DNA of 32,379 nt from a virus (IMGVR_UViG_3300032278_000065:1-32379); one strand, 5' to 3'; counted from the first letter of the stretch, positions 8,883 through 17,304 are shown. The notes: generated from the letters alone by a model not told the origin. Made by a program: numbers and translations.

Positions 8883-10175
8883 ATGGATACGTTAAAGAAG
8901 AAAGTTTTAACCGTATTGGCGATTGTTCTAACAGTCTCCTTAATACTGGGTGGAATTGTTGGATTGGCATTAAGTTATTTAAATCCTGTTCAATGGATTC
9001 AACCTTACCTTTCCCCATGTATTAATTATGTTGGATGTTGGGTTCACCCAACGCTACTCTATACGAGTTCTGTAATTGATACGTTAAATGCTAACTGGTT
9101 AATAACATTACCTACTTCTCTCGTGATTTTTGCTACAGGTTTACTTCAACCTGAAGCACGTAGAAACATACGTGCCTTTCCTCGCAAAGTTATCAACGCA
9201 TACAAGAGGGTATGTATATGGAGAGATAAGCTATTCAGTTTAATAGAAAGACTGAATACTGAATCAGCCAAGTGGAAGAGAACTTTTAATGTACTCAAAT
9301 CTCCCTACACATTACTTCGTGCATTCGGGCTAAGTCCACAGATGGCCATATCTCTCTTGGCAGTAGGGTCTACCGCAGGAACTGGAGTTATAGTTAACGA
9401 AACCGTCTTAGCGGAACGCTCATTTTCAAATGGAGACTCAGGTGTATACCTTGCTCCACTAGATACTCCTTCTTACTTTGACGATAAAGATAACACGTTA
9501 AGGATTAACCTAGGTGCTGTACCAGTAAGAGAGATTACTATTGAGAACGTATCAGCAGGAACAGTTTACTCAGGAGATGCTGCAGGAGCAAAAGTTTCTG
9601 CATTACCTGCAACCTGTGGGTCAAATGGAAGTACGGCTTGTACAGAAGCAGTTTTAATTTCTGGTAATCCTACCGTAGTTGATCCCGCGTTTACTGGAAC
9701 AAGGCTACAGGTAGGTACATTTATAATTGAGAAGTCTAGATGTAAGAGTATGGACTTCAGCGATATAGATGCTCATACAATAGTTATAGAGCATAACGCC
9801 AGTGATGGGCAAAGTATTACCCAAACATCTGGTAACGCTAGAAATAGGGCTATAGGAGGGGGACATCATCAAGCAGAAGCTATGGTAACTAGTGGAGGTA
9901 CATATGACCGCATATGGATTGACGCTCCTAACTCTGGGGTTAACGGAAAGATAGGTACATTAACTTTAAGCAATTTATGGACGAAGGGTGGAAGTTGTAC
10001 CTTTAAAAACATGGACATAGGCGTATTAAAGATTTTACAGAATGAAGTTGGTAATGACGGCAACTTGGTTACAAAGGAGTTTCAAGTATCTGGAGTTACA
10101 GGTGCTAACTGGACGGTAACCGATAACGTGGAATTAATCTTCTCTGAACCTGCACTTGATAAGGGTAACGAGTAG
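8883..10175 (+). CDS. Membrane-anchored protein with a large beta-rich C-terminal domain
   Basis: Hydrophobic segments VLTVLAIVLTVSLILGGIVGLAL, WLITLPTSLVIFATGLL and MAISLLAVGSTAGTGVIV; G/T/S/N-rich C-terminal region with several Cys. Confidence 0.75.
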   Translation: MDTLKKKVLTVLAIVLTVSLILGGIVGLALSYLNPVQWIQPYLSPCINYVGCWVHPTLLYTSSVIDTLNANWLITLPTSLVIFATGLLQPEARRNIRAFPRKVINAYKRVCIWRDKLFSLIERLNTESAKWKRTFNVLKSPYTLLRAFGLSPQMAISLLAVGSTAGTGVIVNETVLAERSFSNGDSGVYLAPLDTPSYFDDKDNTLRINLGAVPVREITIENVSAGTVYSGDAAGAKVSALPATCGSNGSTACTEAVLISGNPTVVDPAFTGTRLQVGTFIIEKSRCKSMDFSDIDAHTIVIEHNASDGQSITQTSGNARNRAIGGGHHQAEAMVTSGGTYDRIWIDAPNSGVNGKIGTLTLSNLWTKGGSCTFKNMDIGVLKILQNEVGNDGNLVTKEFQVSGVTGANWTVTDNVELIFSEPALDKGNE

Positions 10176-10199
10176 GAATATAAATACATAAGAGGATAT

Positions 10200-10862
10200 A
10201 TGATCGAACAAAAAGAATTAGCTTCCCTAGAAGAACATTATGGTAAACCAATCCTTTCGGATGAAGGTGATCCTATCTGTGGGAGAGGAAAGAAAGGTGG
10301 TGGGGTGTGTAGATTTGAGGCAGGTTGGGGAACTGATCACTTAGGATACGGAGCATGTAAACATCACGATAGTGAAGAGAGAATGGATGTTGCTCTAGGA
10401 GACTCAGGGAAAGGAAGAGTTATATACAGTAATATAGCTCAAAACCTTAGACTGAGAGAACATCTACAATCAGAAGAGAAAAGAACAGAACTAGATAACC
10501 TTGATGGCGAAATAGTTCTTCTTAGAGCAATGCTTAAAATACTCGTAGAGAAGTATGGAGAGAAAGTAATCGATGACGAACTCTTTGACATACTGGAGGT
10601 TGGAACTGACTTTGATGCAGTGGATCAGCAAACAAGAAGTTTAGTGAACCTAGTAGACAAGATTAGCACTAGCATTAAGCGTAAGTATGAAGTCTTACAG
10701 ATTGCAGGAAGCACCATCACTAGAGGGAGAGTACGTGAATACGTAGCTAGTATACAACTTGCTCTTGGTCAAGTCTTACGTAACGAATGCCCTCATTGCC
10801 ACAAGAAACATAACCAAAGAGATCAAGCGATTGAAGCTATACGGAGAGTCGGAGAACTTTAA
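10200..10862 (+). CDS. Probable terminase small subunit
   Basis: CGRGKKGGGVC..AGWGTDHLGYGACKHH (variant of the HGGxSTG-type Zn motif), helical LDGEIVLLRAML region, C-terminal CPHC; lies upstream of TerL. Confidence 0.7.
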   Translation: MIEQKELASLEEHYGKPILSDEGDPICGRGKKGGGVCRFEAGWGTDHLGYGACKHHDSEERMDVALGDSGKGRVIYSNIAQNLRLREHLQSEEKRTELDNLDGEIVLLRAMLKILVEKYGEKVIDDELFDILEVGTDFDAVDQQTRSLVNLVDKISTSIKRKYEVLQIAGSTITRGRVREYVASIQLALGQVLRNECPHCHKKHNQRDQAIEAIRRVGEL

Positions 10863-11341
10863 TGTACGAATACAGGGTTAAAATTACAAGAGTGGTTGAT
10901 GGAGATACAGTAGATGCCGAATTGGATTTGGGGTTTGATATTATCTATCGAGATAGAATCAGGCTTATGGGGATTGATACACCTGAGTCAAGAACGCGAA
11001 ACAAGAGAGAGAAAAGTTTGGGACTTGAATCTAAAGCTAGGCTCAAAGAACTCTGTTCTATTCATAAGGGAAATATTTTACTCAAGACTGCTAAAGAAGG
11101 TAAAGGTAAGTTCGGAAGGATATTAGGAGATTTATACCCTATAGATTCTAAAATATCTTTAAATACAATGTTGGTAACTGAAGGACACGCTAGACCTTAC
11201 TTTGGTGGAAGTAAAAATGAAACTGGAGATTGGACTAAAGAAGAAGGCGATTGTAATTGCGGAGGAAGAAAAGCATTTAGTCGCTGTACTGGAAAATGGT
11301 TTCGATGGACTTCAAGTGGTTATGTAGAGTTGGAAAACTAA
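10862..11341 (+). CDS. Thermonuclease (staphylococcal nuclease-like) family protein
   Basis: RVVDGDTV, RIRLMGIDTPE, GKFGRILG, LNTMLVTEGHARPY. Confidence 0.92.
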   Translation: MYEYRVKITRVVDGDTVDAELDLGFDIIYRDRIRLMGIDTPESRTRNKREKSLGLESKARLKELCSIHKGNILLKTAKEGKGKFGRILGDLYPIDSKISLNTMLVTEGHARPYFGGSKNETGDWTKEEGDCNCGGRKAFSRCTGKWFRWTSSGYVELEN

Positions 11342-12129
11342 TGCCAAGACAAATAGCTGATACAGCGAGTATCTCTATACTGTCAGGTATGAAAGAACGA
11401 TCAGTAGCAGAAGAACGAGCATACGATCACCCTGCTTATTTTCATGAATATGTATTCAATCAAACTCTTGCTACGTTCCAGTGGGAGATTATGGAAACGC
11501 TATTGGAAGCTCACGTTAATCCGAATAACTCTTCTGTTAATCCCCTTCTTATTCTTGCTCCTAGAAATCATGGCAAAACTTCTATTGCCGCTGAAAGTTT
11601 TCCTCTCTGGAAAGTTGGCAGAAATAGATTTGAGTTGGTTCAAATTATTTCTAGTGTTATTTCATTAGGGGTAGAGCGAATGGGAAAGATTGAATCCTGT
11701 ATTCGTTTTAATGAAAGATATAAGCAAATGTTTGGAAATCTTTATCCTGAAGAACTAAATGATTACACATGGAAAGTTGATAGGATGGAAGTAGCTAGAG
11801 ATCAAGCTCAAGCATGGGAAAGTGGAGATATACAACGTGATGCTACATTTGCTTGTTTTGGTATAGGTACAAGCGTGGAAGGTGGACGATCAACTCTTCA
11901 GATATTTGATGATGTTGTGAGTATGGAGAATACTCAAAGTGAAACTTCTAGAAGAAATGTTTCTACAAAATTCTGGATGTCTTTTGACCCAATGCTCATG
12001 CCTAAAGGACAACAGATATTCCTTGGTACGAGATTTCATTATGATGATCTCTATGCAGAACTTATACCTATATTAGATACAGATAGATTGTATACAGACC
12101 TTTACCCAAATATCTTGGAGGAAAGCTAA
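11341..12129 (+). CDS. terL: Terminase large subunit, ATPase half (split gene)
   Basis: Q-motif LATFQ, Walker A APRNHGKT, motif III-like GIGTSVEGGR, Walker B LQIFDD, coupling motif GTRFHYDDLY; stops about 25 aa later. Start at the TAATG-coupled ATG 11341 (track gives 11296). Confidence 0.9.
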   Translation: MPRQIADTASISILSGMKERSVAEERAYDHPAYFHEYVFNQTLATFQWEIMETLLEAHVNPNNSSVNPLLILAPRNHGKTSIAAESFPLWKVGRNRFELVQIISSVISLGVERMGKIESCIRFNERYKQMFGNLYPEELNDYTWKVDRMEVARDQAQAWESGDIQRDATFACFGIGTSVEGGRSTLQIFDDVVSMENTQSETSRRNVSTKFWMSFDPMLMPKGQQIFLGTRFHYDDLYAELIPILDTDRLYTDLYPNILEES

Positions 12130-12278
12130 TGAAGAAAAAGATAGCAATAGGTTCTGTATTAGGACTCACGACTTTAGCTATCGGTGGATTAATTTGGAAA
12201 ATCAAGAATGTTCGTATGTGGCGAGAGATAGATGGAAGTTTACCTTTTCCTAGAGCAAAGAAACTTGGAGACAAGTAA
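12129..12278 (+). CDS. 49-aa single-TM protein (not in track), between the TerL halves
   Basis: MKKKIAIGSVLGLTTLAIGGLIWKIKNVRMWREIDGSLPFPRAKKLGDK; TAATG overlap at both ends; GGAGG upstream. Confidence 0.7.
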   Translation: MKKKIAIGSVLGLTTLAIGGLIWKIKNVRMWREIDGSLPFPRAKKLGDK

Positions 12279-12610
12279 TGGACATTAAGAATATGAAAGT
12301 AATGATTGGAATCATTGTTGCAATCGTTGCTCAAGCCTTTGGAATGATTTGGTATATAGCCCAACTTGATTCCACAGTAACCAATAATACTCTTGCTATA
12401 GAAAGTCTAGAAGTATTTGATGATACTGACCTCCTAGAAGCAATTGAGGATTTTGATAACCGCCTAGATGATATCGAGAAGAAGCAAGCAATTATAGAAA
12501 ATGAAATGAGGTCTATCATGTCAGACCATTCCAGTTTTAATAACATCCTAAAAGACATGGGTCAAAGTGGATATGGAGATACTAGACAGTATGGTAATTA
12601 TGGTAACTGA
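12278..12610 (+). CDS. N-terminal TM plus coiled-coil protein, between the TerL halves
   Basis: MIGIIVAIVAQAFGMIWYIA then heptads LEAIEDFDNRLDDIEKKQAIIENEM; GGAG RBS. Confidence 0.8.
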   Translation: MDIKNMKVMIGIIVAIVAQAFGMIWYIAQLDSTVTNNTLAIESLEVFDDTDLLEAIEDFDNRLDDIEKKQAIIENEMRSIMSDHSSFNNILKDMGQSGYGDTRQYGNYGN

Positions 12611-12612
12611 TA

Positions 12613-13488
12613 ATGGGAGTTAGAATATATCGGGCAATCAATCCTGATGGTTCAGTCTTATGGGAAGAGGAACGCCCTAGAGAGTGGCTTGAGAAGAAAA
12701 AACGTTCTATGCCACCCTCATTATTTAATGCTCAATATCAAAATGATCCTTCTGGAATGAAGGGAGTTAAATTTGAAATTGATTGGCTTCACTTTTATGA
12801 TGATGTGTCTATACCTCCTATACATAGATTAATAGGAGTCCAAGGTGGTGATCCTGCAACAAGTGAAGGAGAAAGTGCTAATTACTTTGGTCACTGTACA
12901 GCAGGGAAAGACCCTGAGACTGGAATAGTTTATGTGCTAGATTTTGCATATGGAAAGATAACTGCACCTAAACACCTTGAATTTCTTCATGCTCAATACG
13001 AAACATGGAGAAGAAGGGGTCTAACAATTAATAAAGTTATTCTTGAAACAAATGGGCCTCAACAGGCAACCACTCAACATCTTATTAATCAAACACGAAA
13101 TGATCCTAGAGGTGCTATGCCTATTGATACTGTTAGTCCCAAGGGTTCTAAGGAACAGCGTTATGATTCTATTATTCCTTTTATAGCTAATGGCAGTATT
13201 AAATTCAAAGGAGAAAGGCGTGGGGATGATATGTTTATGAGTTCTGAAAATGGATTTAAAGAATTCATGCACGAGTATAGCTCTTTTCCTAGAGGGGGTA
13301 GAGATGATATTCTTGACGCACTATGGATTGCAGTTCATCAATTAACTTCATCAGTTGAAGCTGTTGCAATAACAGAAGAAGATGTTATGGAAGAAAATCA
13401 ATATATAGAACCAATGGATACTCCAAGAGAAAGAGTTTTAAGTGCTTCTGCTCGACCAAGTTTATTTCATAGTAGAGGATTTAGGTAA
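12613..13488 (+). CDS. terL: Terminase large subunit, lid/linker plus RNase H-like nuclease half
   Basis: YRAINPDGSVLWEE..FNAQYQNDP linker; nuclease acidic residues in GGDPA, VILETN and RDDILDAL. Confidence 0.9.
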   Translation: MGVRIYRAINPDGSVLWEEERPREWLEKKKRSMPPSLFNAQYQNDPSGMKGVKFEIDWLHFYDDVSIPPIHRLIGVQGGDPATSEGESANYFGHCTAGKDPETGIVYVLDFAYGKITAPKHLEFLHAQYETWRRRGLTINKVILETNGPQQATTQHLINQTRNDPRGAMPIDTVSPKGSKEQRYDSIIPFIANGSIKFKGERRGDDMFMSSENGFKEFMHEYSSFPRGGRDDILDALWIAVHQLTSSVEAVAITEEDVMEENQYIEPMDTPRERVLSASARPSLFHSRGFR

Positions 13489-13492
13489 TCAT

Positions 13493-15037
13493 ATGGGTAA
13501 GTTAAAAAATGCTTGGAATGCTTTAACAACAACAGAGAAGGAAGCTGTTAGTTTCGCAGACACTACTGAACCTGATGAGTATTTGTGGAAAAAGATGGGA
13601 ACAGGGAATAAGACTAATAATCTTCCTCCTTTAACTCAAGAACAAACATTAGAGTATGCTCAGTATTTTTATAAGAGTAACCCTATAGCTAAAAGGATTA
13701 TTGATCTTACTGCTGAATATGTTATCGGTGATGGTATTAAATATGTAGCAGAAGATACTGCTGTTCAAGAAATACTGGATGCTCATTGGACTGATCCCAC
13801 AAACAATTGGACTATTAATCAATTTACAAGAGTAAGGGATTTAGGCTTAACAGGAGAACAGTGTATACCTGTATATATTAATGAAAGTAATGGACACGTT
13901 ACTCTTGGAAATATTGATACCGCAATGATTGATACTGTTATTGAAAATCCTCATAACAACATGAAACAACAGATGATCATATTGAAGAAGATTGCAGGAG
14001 AAGCATACCGTAGAGCTTACAAGATCATAGATATATCCAATGCTCCTATAGGAACAAAAGAATATGGGAGATTGGTGGGATTAAATTGTGGAGAGATTAA
14101 GGGTGGAGATTTTGAACTTGGAGATATCATTGAACCCAAACAGGGACGTAAAAAATATAAATGTAAAATAGCAGGTGCTTGTTTCTTCTTTACAATTAAT
14201 AATCCAATGACTGCTGATAGGGGATGGAGCGATCTTCTTCCTGATATGGATTGGATAGACGCTCATGATCAATTCTTATTCTCTTCTGTAGAGAAAGCAA
14301 TAGAATCCTCTAAGTATGTACTTGATGTAACTTTAACTGGTAAAAACGAACAACAGATTAGAGAGTGGTTAAGAAACCAATCAGCCCTAAAACCCGGTCA
14401 AAGATTTGCTCATAATGAAAACGTCACACAGGAATTTAAGACTCCTGATTTACGTTTAGAGGATAGTGCAAGTTTAGCCTCAGTATTAAAAAACCATGTT
14501 CTAGCAGGGGCAGGTTTACCTCCTATATGGTTCTCTGAGTCCTTAACTTCTCGTGCTTCTGCTCCCGAAATGACTGAACCTGCATATCGCCACTTGAAGA
14601 TGAGGCAAAAACATATTTCTTACATAATGAGTAGGATATTTAGATTTGTCCTAGATACAGCAATAGTGTATGGACGATTAAGACAAGATGGTCGTTATAG
14701 CGATAGAAATCTTGCTAGTATTGAATCTGCAAGTTTTTATCTCCGAATGCCTGAAGTTTCCTTTAGGGATCAAAGGGCTAATGCAATTACTTTAAGATCA
14801 GTATCTACGGCTCTTAAAGATGCAACGTCTAATGGCTTCATAGATTTAGAAGAAGCTAATAGAATCTTTAAAAGATATTTAGGGCTTACAGGAATTGATA
14901 CAGGAAAAGATGAACCTGCACAAAAACGTGGGGTGTATGATGTAGATACAACTCTAAAGGAATTGTTCCAAACAACTACTGAATCTATTCATATTAATGA
15001 TTTTACTTATTATCCTTTTCCCGATAGAGTAAAATAA
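13493..15037 (+). CDS. Portal protein
   Basis: Follows TerL; YKSNPIAKRIIDLTAEYVIGDGI, RGWSDL and AGAGLPPIWF...RASA motifs. Likely start ATG 13493 (track GTG 13442). Confidence 0.85.
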   Translation: MGKLKNAWNALTTTEKEAVSFADTTEPDEYLWKKMGTGNKTNNLPPLTQEQTLEYAQYFYKSNPIAKRIIDLTAEYVIGDGIKYVAEDTAVQEILDAHWTDPTNNWTINQFTRVRDLGLTGEQCIPVYINESNGHVTLGNIDTAMIDTVIENPHNNMKQQMIILKKIAGEAYRRAYKIIDISNAPIGTKEYGRLVGLNCGEIKGGDFELGDIIEPKQGRKKYKCKIAGACFFFTINNPMTADRGWSDLLPDMDWIDAHDQFLFSSVEKAIESSKYVLDVTLTGKNEQQIREWLRNQSALKPGQRFAHNENVTQEFKTPDLRLEDSASLASVLKNHVLAGAGLPPIWFSESLTSRASAPEMTEPAYRHLKMRQKHISYIMSRIFRFVLDTAIVYGRLRQDGRYSDRNLASIESASFYLRMPEVSFRDQRANAITLRSVSTALKDATSNGFIDLEEANRIFKRYLGLTGIDTGKDEPAQKRGVYDVDTTLKELFQTTTESIHINDFTYYPFPDRVK

Positions 15038-15102: not shown

Positions 15103-17304
15103 ATGCCAGAAAAACTAGAAGATTGCGTTAAAGATATTTTAGCTGATCCTGATTTTGTACCTGAAGAGGGACATGATAGAGAGGATGCGGCTTATGCTAT
15201 TTGTACCGCAAGGATGAAGTTAGATCAGGTGGAACAAGAGGCAATGGCTCATTCTGATTATGTAGAAAGTACACAGATGATTAAACGTACTCTTCAATTT
15301 GAAGCTAGAGCATTAGATGATACAGGAAGCGATTGGCGTATTCGTATTATCAATGCAGGAACATCAAGAAATAATAGAGAATATCCTTTAGATGTTCTTC
15401 ATAGAGATGCGTTAATTTTTGAAGGAGTTCCAGTTCATGCAGGAAATGGTAGAGATCATTCTCCTGAAGAACGTGGCGTTAAAAGTATTGTTGGGTTTAT
15501 TAAAAATGTAGATCGAGTTCCGGAAGGACTTGATGCTACATTTCATGTTTCTGATCCAACTCTAAGAGATACTCTTCTTGATTTACATAAGGAAGGAGTA
15601 TTAAGTTCTGTTGTTGGATTTAGCATTGTTGCTGAAGGACGATGGCAAAGTGATCAGGTAATGAAGTCAGAGCGAGCAATACAGCTAGTACGAGCCGACT
15701 CTGTAGATTTGGTTAGAGAACCTGCCGCAGGGGGTAAATTCCTTGCAGTTGCAGAGTCAGAAGAAGTTATCCATAAAGAAGAAGTCATTAATACAATTCC
15801 TTTTAAGGAGGGAAAAACAATGGAAATAACTGAGGAAAAGTTACAAGACCTTCTTGCGGAAGCCTCCAAAAGGGAAGCCGTAAAAGAAGTTATAGAAAGT
15901 GAGGAAGTAAGTAAGGTTGAAGAAGCTCTTACTCAGCTAAATTCCACTCTTCTTAATTCAGCGATTTCAGGTGCAGGTTTACCTGACATTGCAGAGAATA
16001 GAATTCGGGTTCAATTTGAAGGTGGATCATTTGATGCTCCTGCTGTTCAGAAAGCAATTGCAGACGAGAAAGATTATCTCGCTAGTTTAAATAAGGTTGC
16101 TGTAGAGAACGTCACCACTAGTAAGACTGAAATTATTGCTGATGAGGGTGACAAGAAACTTGCTCGACTGGATGCTTCTTTCACACCATCTAGAGTTATA
16201 GTAACTAAAGATGGAGAGAGAATTAAGGGATACCGAACCTTTACAGAAGCATATTGTGATTGGACTGGAAAGAATCCTTTTGAAGTTGGACGAGATGAAG
16301 TTTGGGAAGCATGGATGAATGGCTCAAGAGGTTATGCGTCTTGGCGTGAAGAAGCTGTTAGTAGGCTTTACACAGAAGCAATAGGTACATCTGAATGGGC
16401 AGAAGTTGCCGCAGACAGAATGCACAAAGCCCTGTTACAGAACTATGTTGATCTGCCTCAGTATCAAGATTGGAGAAAAGTAGCAAAGGTTATCAGCGTT
16501 AATGATTACCAAGCATACAGAGACATCAAAATTGGTGGCTTTGCAGATTTGGCAGTTGTTGCAGAAGCAGGTACATATGCTAACCTAACCAATCCTACAG
16601 ATGAGGAAACTTCAGTTACCATGCAGAAGCGTGGTGGTATCGCTTATCAGATAACACGCGAATTGGTGTTGAATGATAATATCGGTGCTGTAGCTGAGAT
16701 ACCTCGTGAACTGGCTCGATCTGCTGCTAGAACTCTTTATAAGCAGGTCTTTAATATAATGGGTGACAATGATCACACTTATCAGCCTGACTCTGTAGCT
16801 ACGTTCAATGCTGCTCATAATAATATTGGCACTACTGCTCTTTCTATTGCAGGTCTGAATGAGACATCAATAGGCATGAGAAGTCAGACTAGATATGGTG
16901 CTACCGCTGATGTGCTTGGAGCTGCAAATGCACCTAGAACATTGGTTGTGCCTAATGAGCTGACTAGCTTGGCAATGAGGATTTCAAATCCATCTGCTCA
17001 CGTTCAGGTCGAGTTAACTGCTGATGCTGATACAGATATAGATGCCGCACGATTCGCAGGATTAGATGTCATAACAGTTGACTACTTCACTAATGCTACT
17101 CAGTATTTCACCGTTGCTGATCCTGATGAAGCCGCAGGAATTGTGGTTGCATTCTTGAACGGTAACGAAGAGCCTGATCTGTTTATACAGAATGACGAGA
17201 CTCAAGGTGATACATTCACCAATGATGTACAAAGCATTAAAGTAAGGCACGAGTTCAACACAACTGTTGCTGACTTCCGACCGCTTTACAGGCAAATTGG
17301 GTAA
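15103..17304 (+). CDS. Prohead protease-scaffold-major capsid fusion (Mu gpT-like capsid domain)
   Basis: Protease-like INAGTSRNNREYP..H..GFSI..SVDLVREPAAGG; acidic helical linker; capsid motifs WRKVAKVISVNDY, LAVVAEAGTY, ITRELVLNDNIGA..IPRELARSAART and LVVPNEL. Confidence 0.9.
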   Translation: MPEKLEDCVKDILADPDFVPEEGHDREDAAYAICTARMKLDQVEQEAMAHSDYVESTQMIKRTLQFEARALDDTGSDWRIRIINAGTSRNNREYPLDVLHRDALIFEGVPVHAGNGRDHSPEERGVKSIVGFIKNVDRVPEGLDATFHVSDPTLRDTLLDLHKEGVLSSVVGFSIVAEGRWQSDQVMKSERAIQLVRADSVDLVREPAAGGKFLAVAESEEVIHKEEVINTIPFKEGKTMEITEEKLQDLLAEASKREAVKEVIESEEVSKVEEALTQLNSTLLNSAISGAGLPDIAENRIRVQFEGGSFDAPAVQKAIADEKDYLASLNKVAVENVTTSKTEIIADEGDKKLARLDASFTPSRVIVTKDGERIKGYRTFTEAYCDWTGKNPFEVGRDEVWEAWMNGSRGYASWREEAVSRLYTEAIGTSEWAEVAADRMHKALLQNYVDLPQYQDWRKVAKVISVNDYQAYRDIKIGGFADLAVVAEAGTYANLTNPTDEETSVTMQKRGGIAYQITRELVLNDNIGAVAEIPRELARSAARTLYKQVFNIMGDNDHTYQPDSVATFNAAHNNIGTTALSIAGLNETSIGMRSQTRYGATADVLGAANAPRTLVVPNELTSLAMRISNPSAHVQVELTADADTDIDAARFAGLDVITVDYFTNATQYFTVADPDEAAGIVVAFLNGNEEPDLFIQNDETQGDTFTNDVQSIKVRHEFNTTVADFRPLYRQIG

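Follow-up and report, generated by a model that had tools for sequence, protein, structure and literature searches.

Large terminase encoded by two genes across a clade of uncultured, mostly marine phages

The window analysed here, i.e. the whole 32,379-nt stretch of DNA from whose first nucleotide all positions are counted (IMGVR_UViG_3300032278_000065:1-32379), is a virus record estimated to be 77% complete, and it carries one copy of terL, the gene of the large terminase. Three sequencing runs labelled as seawater or marine metagenome contain at least half of its sampled words, RNA runs contain a fraction of 0.06-0.07, and another record (L001) departs from it at 2 of 10,786 positions. On the + strand, a 220-aa gene (10200..10862) without a significant Pfam or PHROG match likely encodes the small terminase, judged by position alone (upstream of terL in relatives). 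It is followed by a staphylococcal-nuclease-like gene (10862..11341; Pfam SNase, E 9e-12; phrog_452), which inner-clade relatives also have between the likely terS and terL-N, and in place of which outer relatives carry other genes. A TAATG stop-start junction links this gene to terL-N (11341..12129, 262 aa), after which come a 49-aa gene (12129..12278), a 110-aa gene (12278..12610) and terL-C (12613..13488, 291 aa). A portal gene (13493..15037; phrog_10963, E 7e-34) and a single 733-aa gene for a fused head protease and major capsid protein (15103..17304; Pfam Phage_capsid_4; phrog_4523, phrog_133) complete the series, all on the same strand. Because the portal and protease–capsid genes adjoin terL, the locus can be recognised as the packaging module of a tailed phage.

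Scans of 10100-13600 returned four promoter-like sites (11.5 expected) and four terminator-like sites (1.7 expected), nothing usable in either case. Elsewhere in the window, a phage-encoded RuvB-like Holliday junction helicase lies on the − strand (1179-2087; Pfam RuvB_N, E 1e-40). Database searches for the closest cultured phages gave best matches below 30% identity, and a genome scan for the host yielded only three distant loci; within one phylum, 10 of 401 genomes matched, all of them in open frames of 386-836 aa.

The initial annotation had described a large terminase divided into two genes with two membrane-protein genes between the halves, and this layout was recovered in full: both TerL ORFs lie where they were called, the 483 nt between them hold the 49-aa and 110-aa ORFs, and the junctions of the four ORFs are TAATG, TAATG and TGATAATG. 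Each of the two intervening ORFs contains a single hydrophobic 19-mer, with mean hydropathy values of 1.91 and 2.15 (1.13 and 1.17 in the TerL halves). TerL-N contains the Walker A (APRNHGKT), Walker B (IFDD) and motif III (GTR) sequences attributed to it and extends from the ATPase core to the helix after motif III, followed by a conserved, clade-specific tail with the pattern D246-x4-Y251-x3-Y255 and an acidic end. Its longest open frame opens at 11296; relatives begin at the equivalent of 11341. TerL-C is made up of the likely last ATPase strand (V-R-I-Y-x-A), the lid helices, a hinge, the RNase H-like nuclease (D80, E145, D232 and D235) and a C-terminal extension. In profile searches, PHROG 38 (TerL) matched both proteins consecutively, with profile positions 262-463 falling on the N-half (E 1e-33) and 474-717 on the C-half (E 8e-43); Pfam matched neither. 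PHROGs also holds half-length TerL families matching the N-half (4758) and the C-half (5573), whose ends agree with the cut.

Relatives were gathered by scans of viral and metagenome contigs, and 237 loci, among which the same contigs often recur, were classified with a profile of each half. All 77 loci that carry both halves and score above 300 bits on the N-half profile are split, the best intact locus reaching 125 bits. These 77 loci collapse to 19 distinct junction types, and one cut site is common to all 19, which are close relatives. The gap between the halves ranges from -1 to 1451 nt over these types (-1 nt in two of them), and the halves are offset by 0, 1 or 2 nt in 7, 6 and 6 types, respectively; that they share a reading frame in the window is correct and incidental. 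At the protein level, 53 of 71 clusters score above 250 bits on the N-half profile, all of them 134-337 aa long. Every aligned N-half (50/50) extends 31-65 aa past motif III, and in 41 of 45 C-halves the V-x-I-Y-x-A motif starts within six residues of the N-terminus. The split TerL is kept down to ~41% identity. The split is thus old and clade-wide in uncultured, mostly marine phages. One candidate (L117) was dropped, as its apparent split consists of one in-frame TGA where L115 has Trp, probably an error.

The halves retain the hallmarks of a working enzyme. Walker A R75 and K79 and Walker B D190 are invariant in the 50-row alignment of N-halves, as are nuclease D80, D231, D232 and D235 in 45 C-half rows, with E145 nearly so. 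Conservation extends to both sides of the cut: in the TerL-N tail, D246 is found in 50 of 50 rows, Y251 in 49 and Y255 in 44, and the strand motif opening TerL-C is near-invariant (V3 45/45, Y6 44/45, A8 45/45). Relative to the window, pN/pS is 0.11-0.28 for TerL-N and 0.13-0.31 for TerL-C (eight pairs each), comparable to 0.11-0.27 for the portal gene (four pairs), with distant pairs near saturation. Since these values match those of the portal gene and dN/dS in the closest pair is low (~0.08 for TerL-N, ~0.09 for TerL-C), decay is excluded. Both halves are under purifying selection and keep their catalytic residues, in line with the earlier view of an intact operon rather than a pseudogene.

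Where the cut falls in the fold can be judged from intact relatives. When aligned by profile to the intact TerL P0169, the halves follow each other directly, meeting at about residues 223/225 with nothing lost. The cut lies in the loop after the motif III helix, and in one-chain homologs the motif that opens the C-half comes after this helix and a short turn. In solved terminases, the ATPase domain is described as an ASCE core plus lid, followed by a short linker and the nuclease, and a P-loop arginine has been proposed to drive lid movement (PMC5727402, available text). Secondary structure, alignment and this known architecture indicate that the last ATPase strand and the lid likely belong to TerL-C, and that the cut likely runs inside the motor domain, before the lid, rather than at the hinge between ATPase and nuclease; it lies ~75 residues ahead of the first nuclease aspartate. 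Searches of the openly available literature retrieved no report of the clade or of a cut before the lid, and the available text of three papers (PMC7824862, PMC4205034, PMC11564622) describes no split-TerL case.

The full profile scan contains a sole one-chain member, P0166, a TerL of 641 aa (273 bits) on a 4.2-kb contig that is 38% and 33% identical to the two halves. Tail and strand are both present in it, and the loop that connects them exceeds the usual length by ~30 residues. A model of the chain (pLDDT 84) shows the motif III strand at 223-227, a helix at 235-243 and the tail as a helix at 245-252, beyond which follow a low-confidence linker, a strand at 278-280, helices at 306-336 and, starting at 367, the nuclease; by fold, the model comes closest to PhiV-1 TerL (8dgc, E 1e-19), at a TM of 0.32 and a high rmsd. 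P0166 falls within the clade of split proteins in all three trees, which are quick LG+G4 trees (L258 is absent from the one of the N-half). A comparison of a sister position with re-fusion gave a p-AU of 0.417, 12 short rows of doubtful completeness being omitted from this test and from one tree, and P0166 may be either an intermediate or a re-fusion. A search among longer proteins found nothing above 89 bits in 7998 candidates and missed P0166, so more single-chain members may exist.

A second lineage (L251-L257) has its TerL cut at the same site. The halves are separate genes in six of these seven loci, the seventh ending at a contig edge, and the cargo between them is absent, a single small gene, or a small gene together with a cytosine methyltransferase and an HNH gene. 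The last arrangement is seen in L254 and L256, where the methyltransferase is of the C5 type and the small gene is Cys-rich. Holding the core clade, the second lineage and P0166 together is not rejected (p-AU 0.59 for the N-half, 0.60 for the C-half), whereas uniting core and second lineage without P0166 is rejected on the N tree (0.023) and not on the C tree (0.187). The trees are compatible both with a second fission and with the same old one.

TerL is usually one chain, serves as a standard marker in phage phylogeny and is a target of bacterial sensors. The best sequence and fold matches of the split protein are T7-type one-chain terminases (T7 gp19, 4bij; PhiV-1, 8dgc; phrog_38; Terminase_6N/6C), which have the same motifs and domain order, and the following sequence features of a terminase are present: Walker A, Walker B, motif III, the RNase H-like acidic residues and portal and capsid neighbours. 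However, T7-type TerL (phrog_38) is one polypeptide, whereas two ORFs, cut in the loop after the motif III helix, were found in 19/19 junction types.

A TerL in two genes has been described before, in most Arthrobacter cluster AY phages (BillyTP and BlueShadow, for instance), and the available text reports no splicing element for them (PMC11920828, PMC12820723). Yet, the AY genes are consecutive (359 + 198 aa), whereas here cargo comes and goes, and they belong to another TerL family (PF20441). Moreover, since the second gene of BillyTP begins just before the first nuclease aspartate, the AY split is at the hinge and not, as here, well before it. A further likeness is to phage Aeh1, whose NrdA works as two chains: in the account available, Aeh1 nrdA and T4-like gp43 are essential phage enzymes whose two chains are encoded in one operon, separated by a further gene (PMC2677866). 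Unlike these, the core cargo scanned in the 19 junction types includes no homing endonuclease, and an HNH gene between the halves occurs only in L254 and L256 of the second lineage. Finally, TerL spread over several ORFs is known from phages, Jug phages among them, whose terL is fragmented by group I introns or split inteins; such pieces are reported to be rejoined by RNA or protein splicing (PMC12880540, PMC2677866; available text), whereas the scans made here detected neither kind of element. Both two-gene TerL and genes-in-pieces are already known, and the two-gene precedent limits the surprise of the present case.

We propose that these phages encode a T7-type TerL as two genes clade-wide and that, judging from the sequences, the two proteins quite probably reassemble, without splicing, into one working packaging subunit. 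The stop-start overlaps would likely couple translation and supply similar amounts of both chains. Because the second chain appears to begin with the last ATPase strand and the lid, the chains would bind non-covalently by strand complementation and lid packing, with the conserved new tail of TerL-N likely helping to hold the pair together, and the membrane genes would most likely be passengers that exploit late-operon expression. Co-folding of the halves scored above controls (0.58, best control 0.00), with at least 89% of contacts agreeing between runs and a partner pLDDT of 79. Of the reference pairs, 116 of 157 solved ones and 2 of 215 mismatched ones reach the pass mark, and 0.58 is weak in being near it: only 18 of the 157 solved pairs, together with both passing mismatches, score 0.60 or less. 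The co-folding thus lends weak backing to re-assembly and may stem from likeness to solved one-chain terminases. Two observations sit less easily with the proposal. One clade member, P0166, is a single chain, although it represents a single sequence on a short contig. Furthermore, 9 of the 11 inner-clade junction types keep a 39-49-aa gene with a single hydrophobic segment between the halves, at a pN/pS of 0.09-0.37, which suggests that this small gene is useful to the phage.

The split may persist because terminase sensors (Avs1-3, Upx) detect a divided TerL less readily, a reading that is compatible with reassembly of the two chains and that we regard as unlikely. According to the available text of PMC13601566, SeAvs3 binds the ATPase as well as the folded nuclease, and the closest solved relative is the Avs3-bound PhiV-1 TerL. 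Nevertheless, the same text describes strong activation of EcAvs2 by ATPase domains alone, which argues against a simple escape from Avs, and a reassembled dimer would present the same surfaces, leaving evasion possible but unsupported.

Alternatively, the association could be loose: the TerL-N tail would complete the ATPase fold itself, and the lid-nuclease chain would dock transiently as a switch between pumping and cutting. The strong conservation of the tail, its weak HMMER alignment to the post-helix strand region of T7 gp19 (E 0.06) and the low co-folding score all fit this scheme. However, P0166 has tail and strand both and shows the tail as a helix in its model, C-halves hardly vary in the strand motif, and the lid of P74-26 TerL covers the active site and contributes to assembly of the ring (PMC5389665, available text), all of which make transient docking decidedly unlikely compared with stable reassembly.

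What lies between the halves bears on a possible role of the membrane proteins as functional partners of the motor, either by anchoring it in the membrane or by linking packaging with lysis. Cargo is present in 17 of 19 junction types and absent in two (L009 and L070). The 110-aa gene lies between the halves in only one type, that of the window, as a precise 335-nt whole-gene insertion at the stop-start junction (12276..12616, + strand, from DNA alignment with L002 and L003). Both of these closest relatives lack it, and a 6-nt direct repeat flanks it (12276-12281 and 12611-12616). A PAPS-reductase-like gene is an extra in L006 and L010 (Pfam E 0.011, below the cut-off), and all eight outer types have a Cys4-HTH gene instead, directly before terL-C. 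The new gene boundary thus gains and loses whole accessory genes, and since cargo is absent or swapped across types, the gap is best read as a normal junction between genes of a late operon. Tight stop-start coupling, the retention of the small gene under purifying selection in 9/11 inner types and the position of 110-aa homologs within ~3 kb of terL in several relatives do speak for membrane partners. Yet, the types without cargo, the unrelated Cys4-HTH gene at this site in 8/19 types, the PAPS-reductase-like gene, the methyltransferase and HNH genes of L254 and the single occurrence of the 110-aa gene weigh against them, as does the sole, weak match of this gene among isolates (E 5e-3), which sits downstream of a tail-fibre gene. 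With cargo interchangeable, the motor cannot depend on the small gene lying between its halves. Of the earlier proposal of a two-subunit motor with membrane partners, the stable two-gene TerL in an intact operon therefore stands, whereas the partnership is very unlikely.

The accessory genes themselves show further traits. Atlas searches gave no family name for the 49-aa or the 110-aa protein, and the former has no Pfam or PHROG family. The latter, assigned from PHROG, relatives and look-alike clusters, is an accessory membrane protein of a widespread viral family, its look-alike clusters being viral and without a name. In L009, and partly in L070, a homolog immediately precedes terL-N, and in L004, L005 and L008 homologs are located ~2.5-3 kb upstream of terL. 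In run X5, relatives of the gene reach a depth of ~490 over window positions 12330-12600, far above the flanking terL, suggesting that it is common in other marine elements. The Cys4-HTH gene (L020, 3944-4255; L077, L078, L079, L095, L096, L098 and L100) has no homolog in the window, and L077 holds several further genes between the halves. In L074 (2721-2873), the PAPS-reductase-like cargo gene, which L010 and L075 have in full, is reduced to a remnant of 50 aa, a case of cargo loss in progress.

A covalent union of the halves by RNA splicing, a split intein or ribosome bypass is highly improbable. Introns and split inteins do fragment terL elsewhere (PMC12880540, PMC2677866; available text), and the window's halves share a frame. 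Against this, the C-half opens directly with TerL sequence and the N-half has a conserved extra tail before its stop codon. The earlier statement that the gap holds no recognisable intron, intein or homing endonuclease agrees with our Rfam and Pfam scans: Rfam returned two chance snoRNA matches and no intron family on the window at E up to 5 and no matches on 12 loci at the gathering threshold, and intein Pfam models had no match at E up to 0.5. These results, together with the variable frames and the gap of -1 nt in two types, make splicing unlikely. That the split is a misassembly or a decaying pseudogene is almost certainly wrong, for although the window is an uncultured, incomplete record, an independent DNA contig of run X4 (12019-12681) bridges the whole insert with 0 differences, contigs of run X3 (11970-12388 and 12551-13800) also show 0 differences, no joints were seen at the locus in the four DNA runs compared, and the split is found throughout the clade with selection on the halves like that on the portal gene.

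If the halves do reassemble as proposed, the ATPase core can do without a covalent link to the lid. The pair would then be a natural one for studying how the lid couples ATP to DNA movement and for asking whether Avs-type sensors need an intact chain. On the practical side, marker-based surveys will misread phages of this clade as having broken terminases.

The lid couples ATP hydrolysis to movement in terminases. A bolder and rather doubtful extension is that T7-type terminases have repeatedly been split and fused at the loop after motif III, with P0166 as an intermediate or a re-fusion, and that placing the lid on the nuclease chain creates a clutch. If true, the motor would be a heterodimer whose ATPase stays off until the lid-nuclease chain docks, and the clutch would time packaging or delay a complete, sensor-visible terminase until motor assembly.

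Seven distant N-only TerL proteins (P0173, P0175, P0176, P0181, P0185, P0195 and P0232) end at this site, 20-47 residues after motif III, and are possible further splits; a scan with P0185 found nothing. Among C-halves, those of P0139, P0140 and P0141 are encoded on ~80-kb contigs and have N-terminal extensions of ~45-65 residues and a Cys-rich C-terminus.
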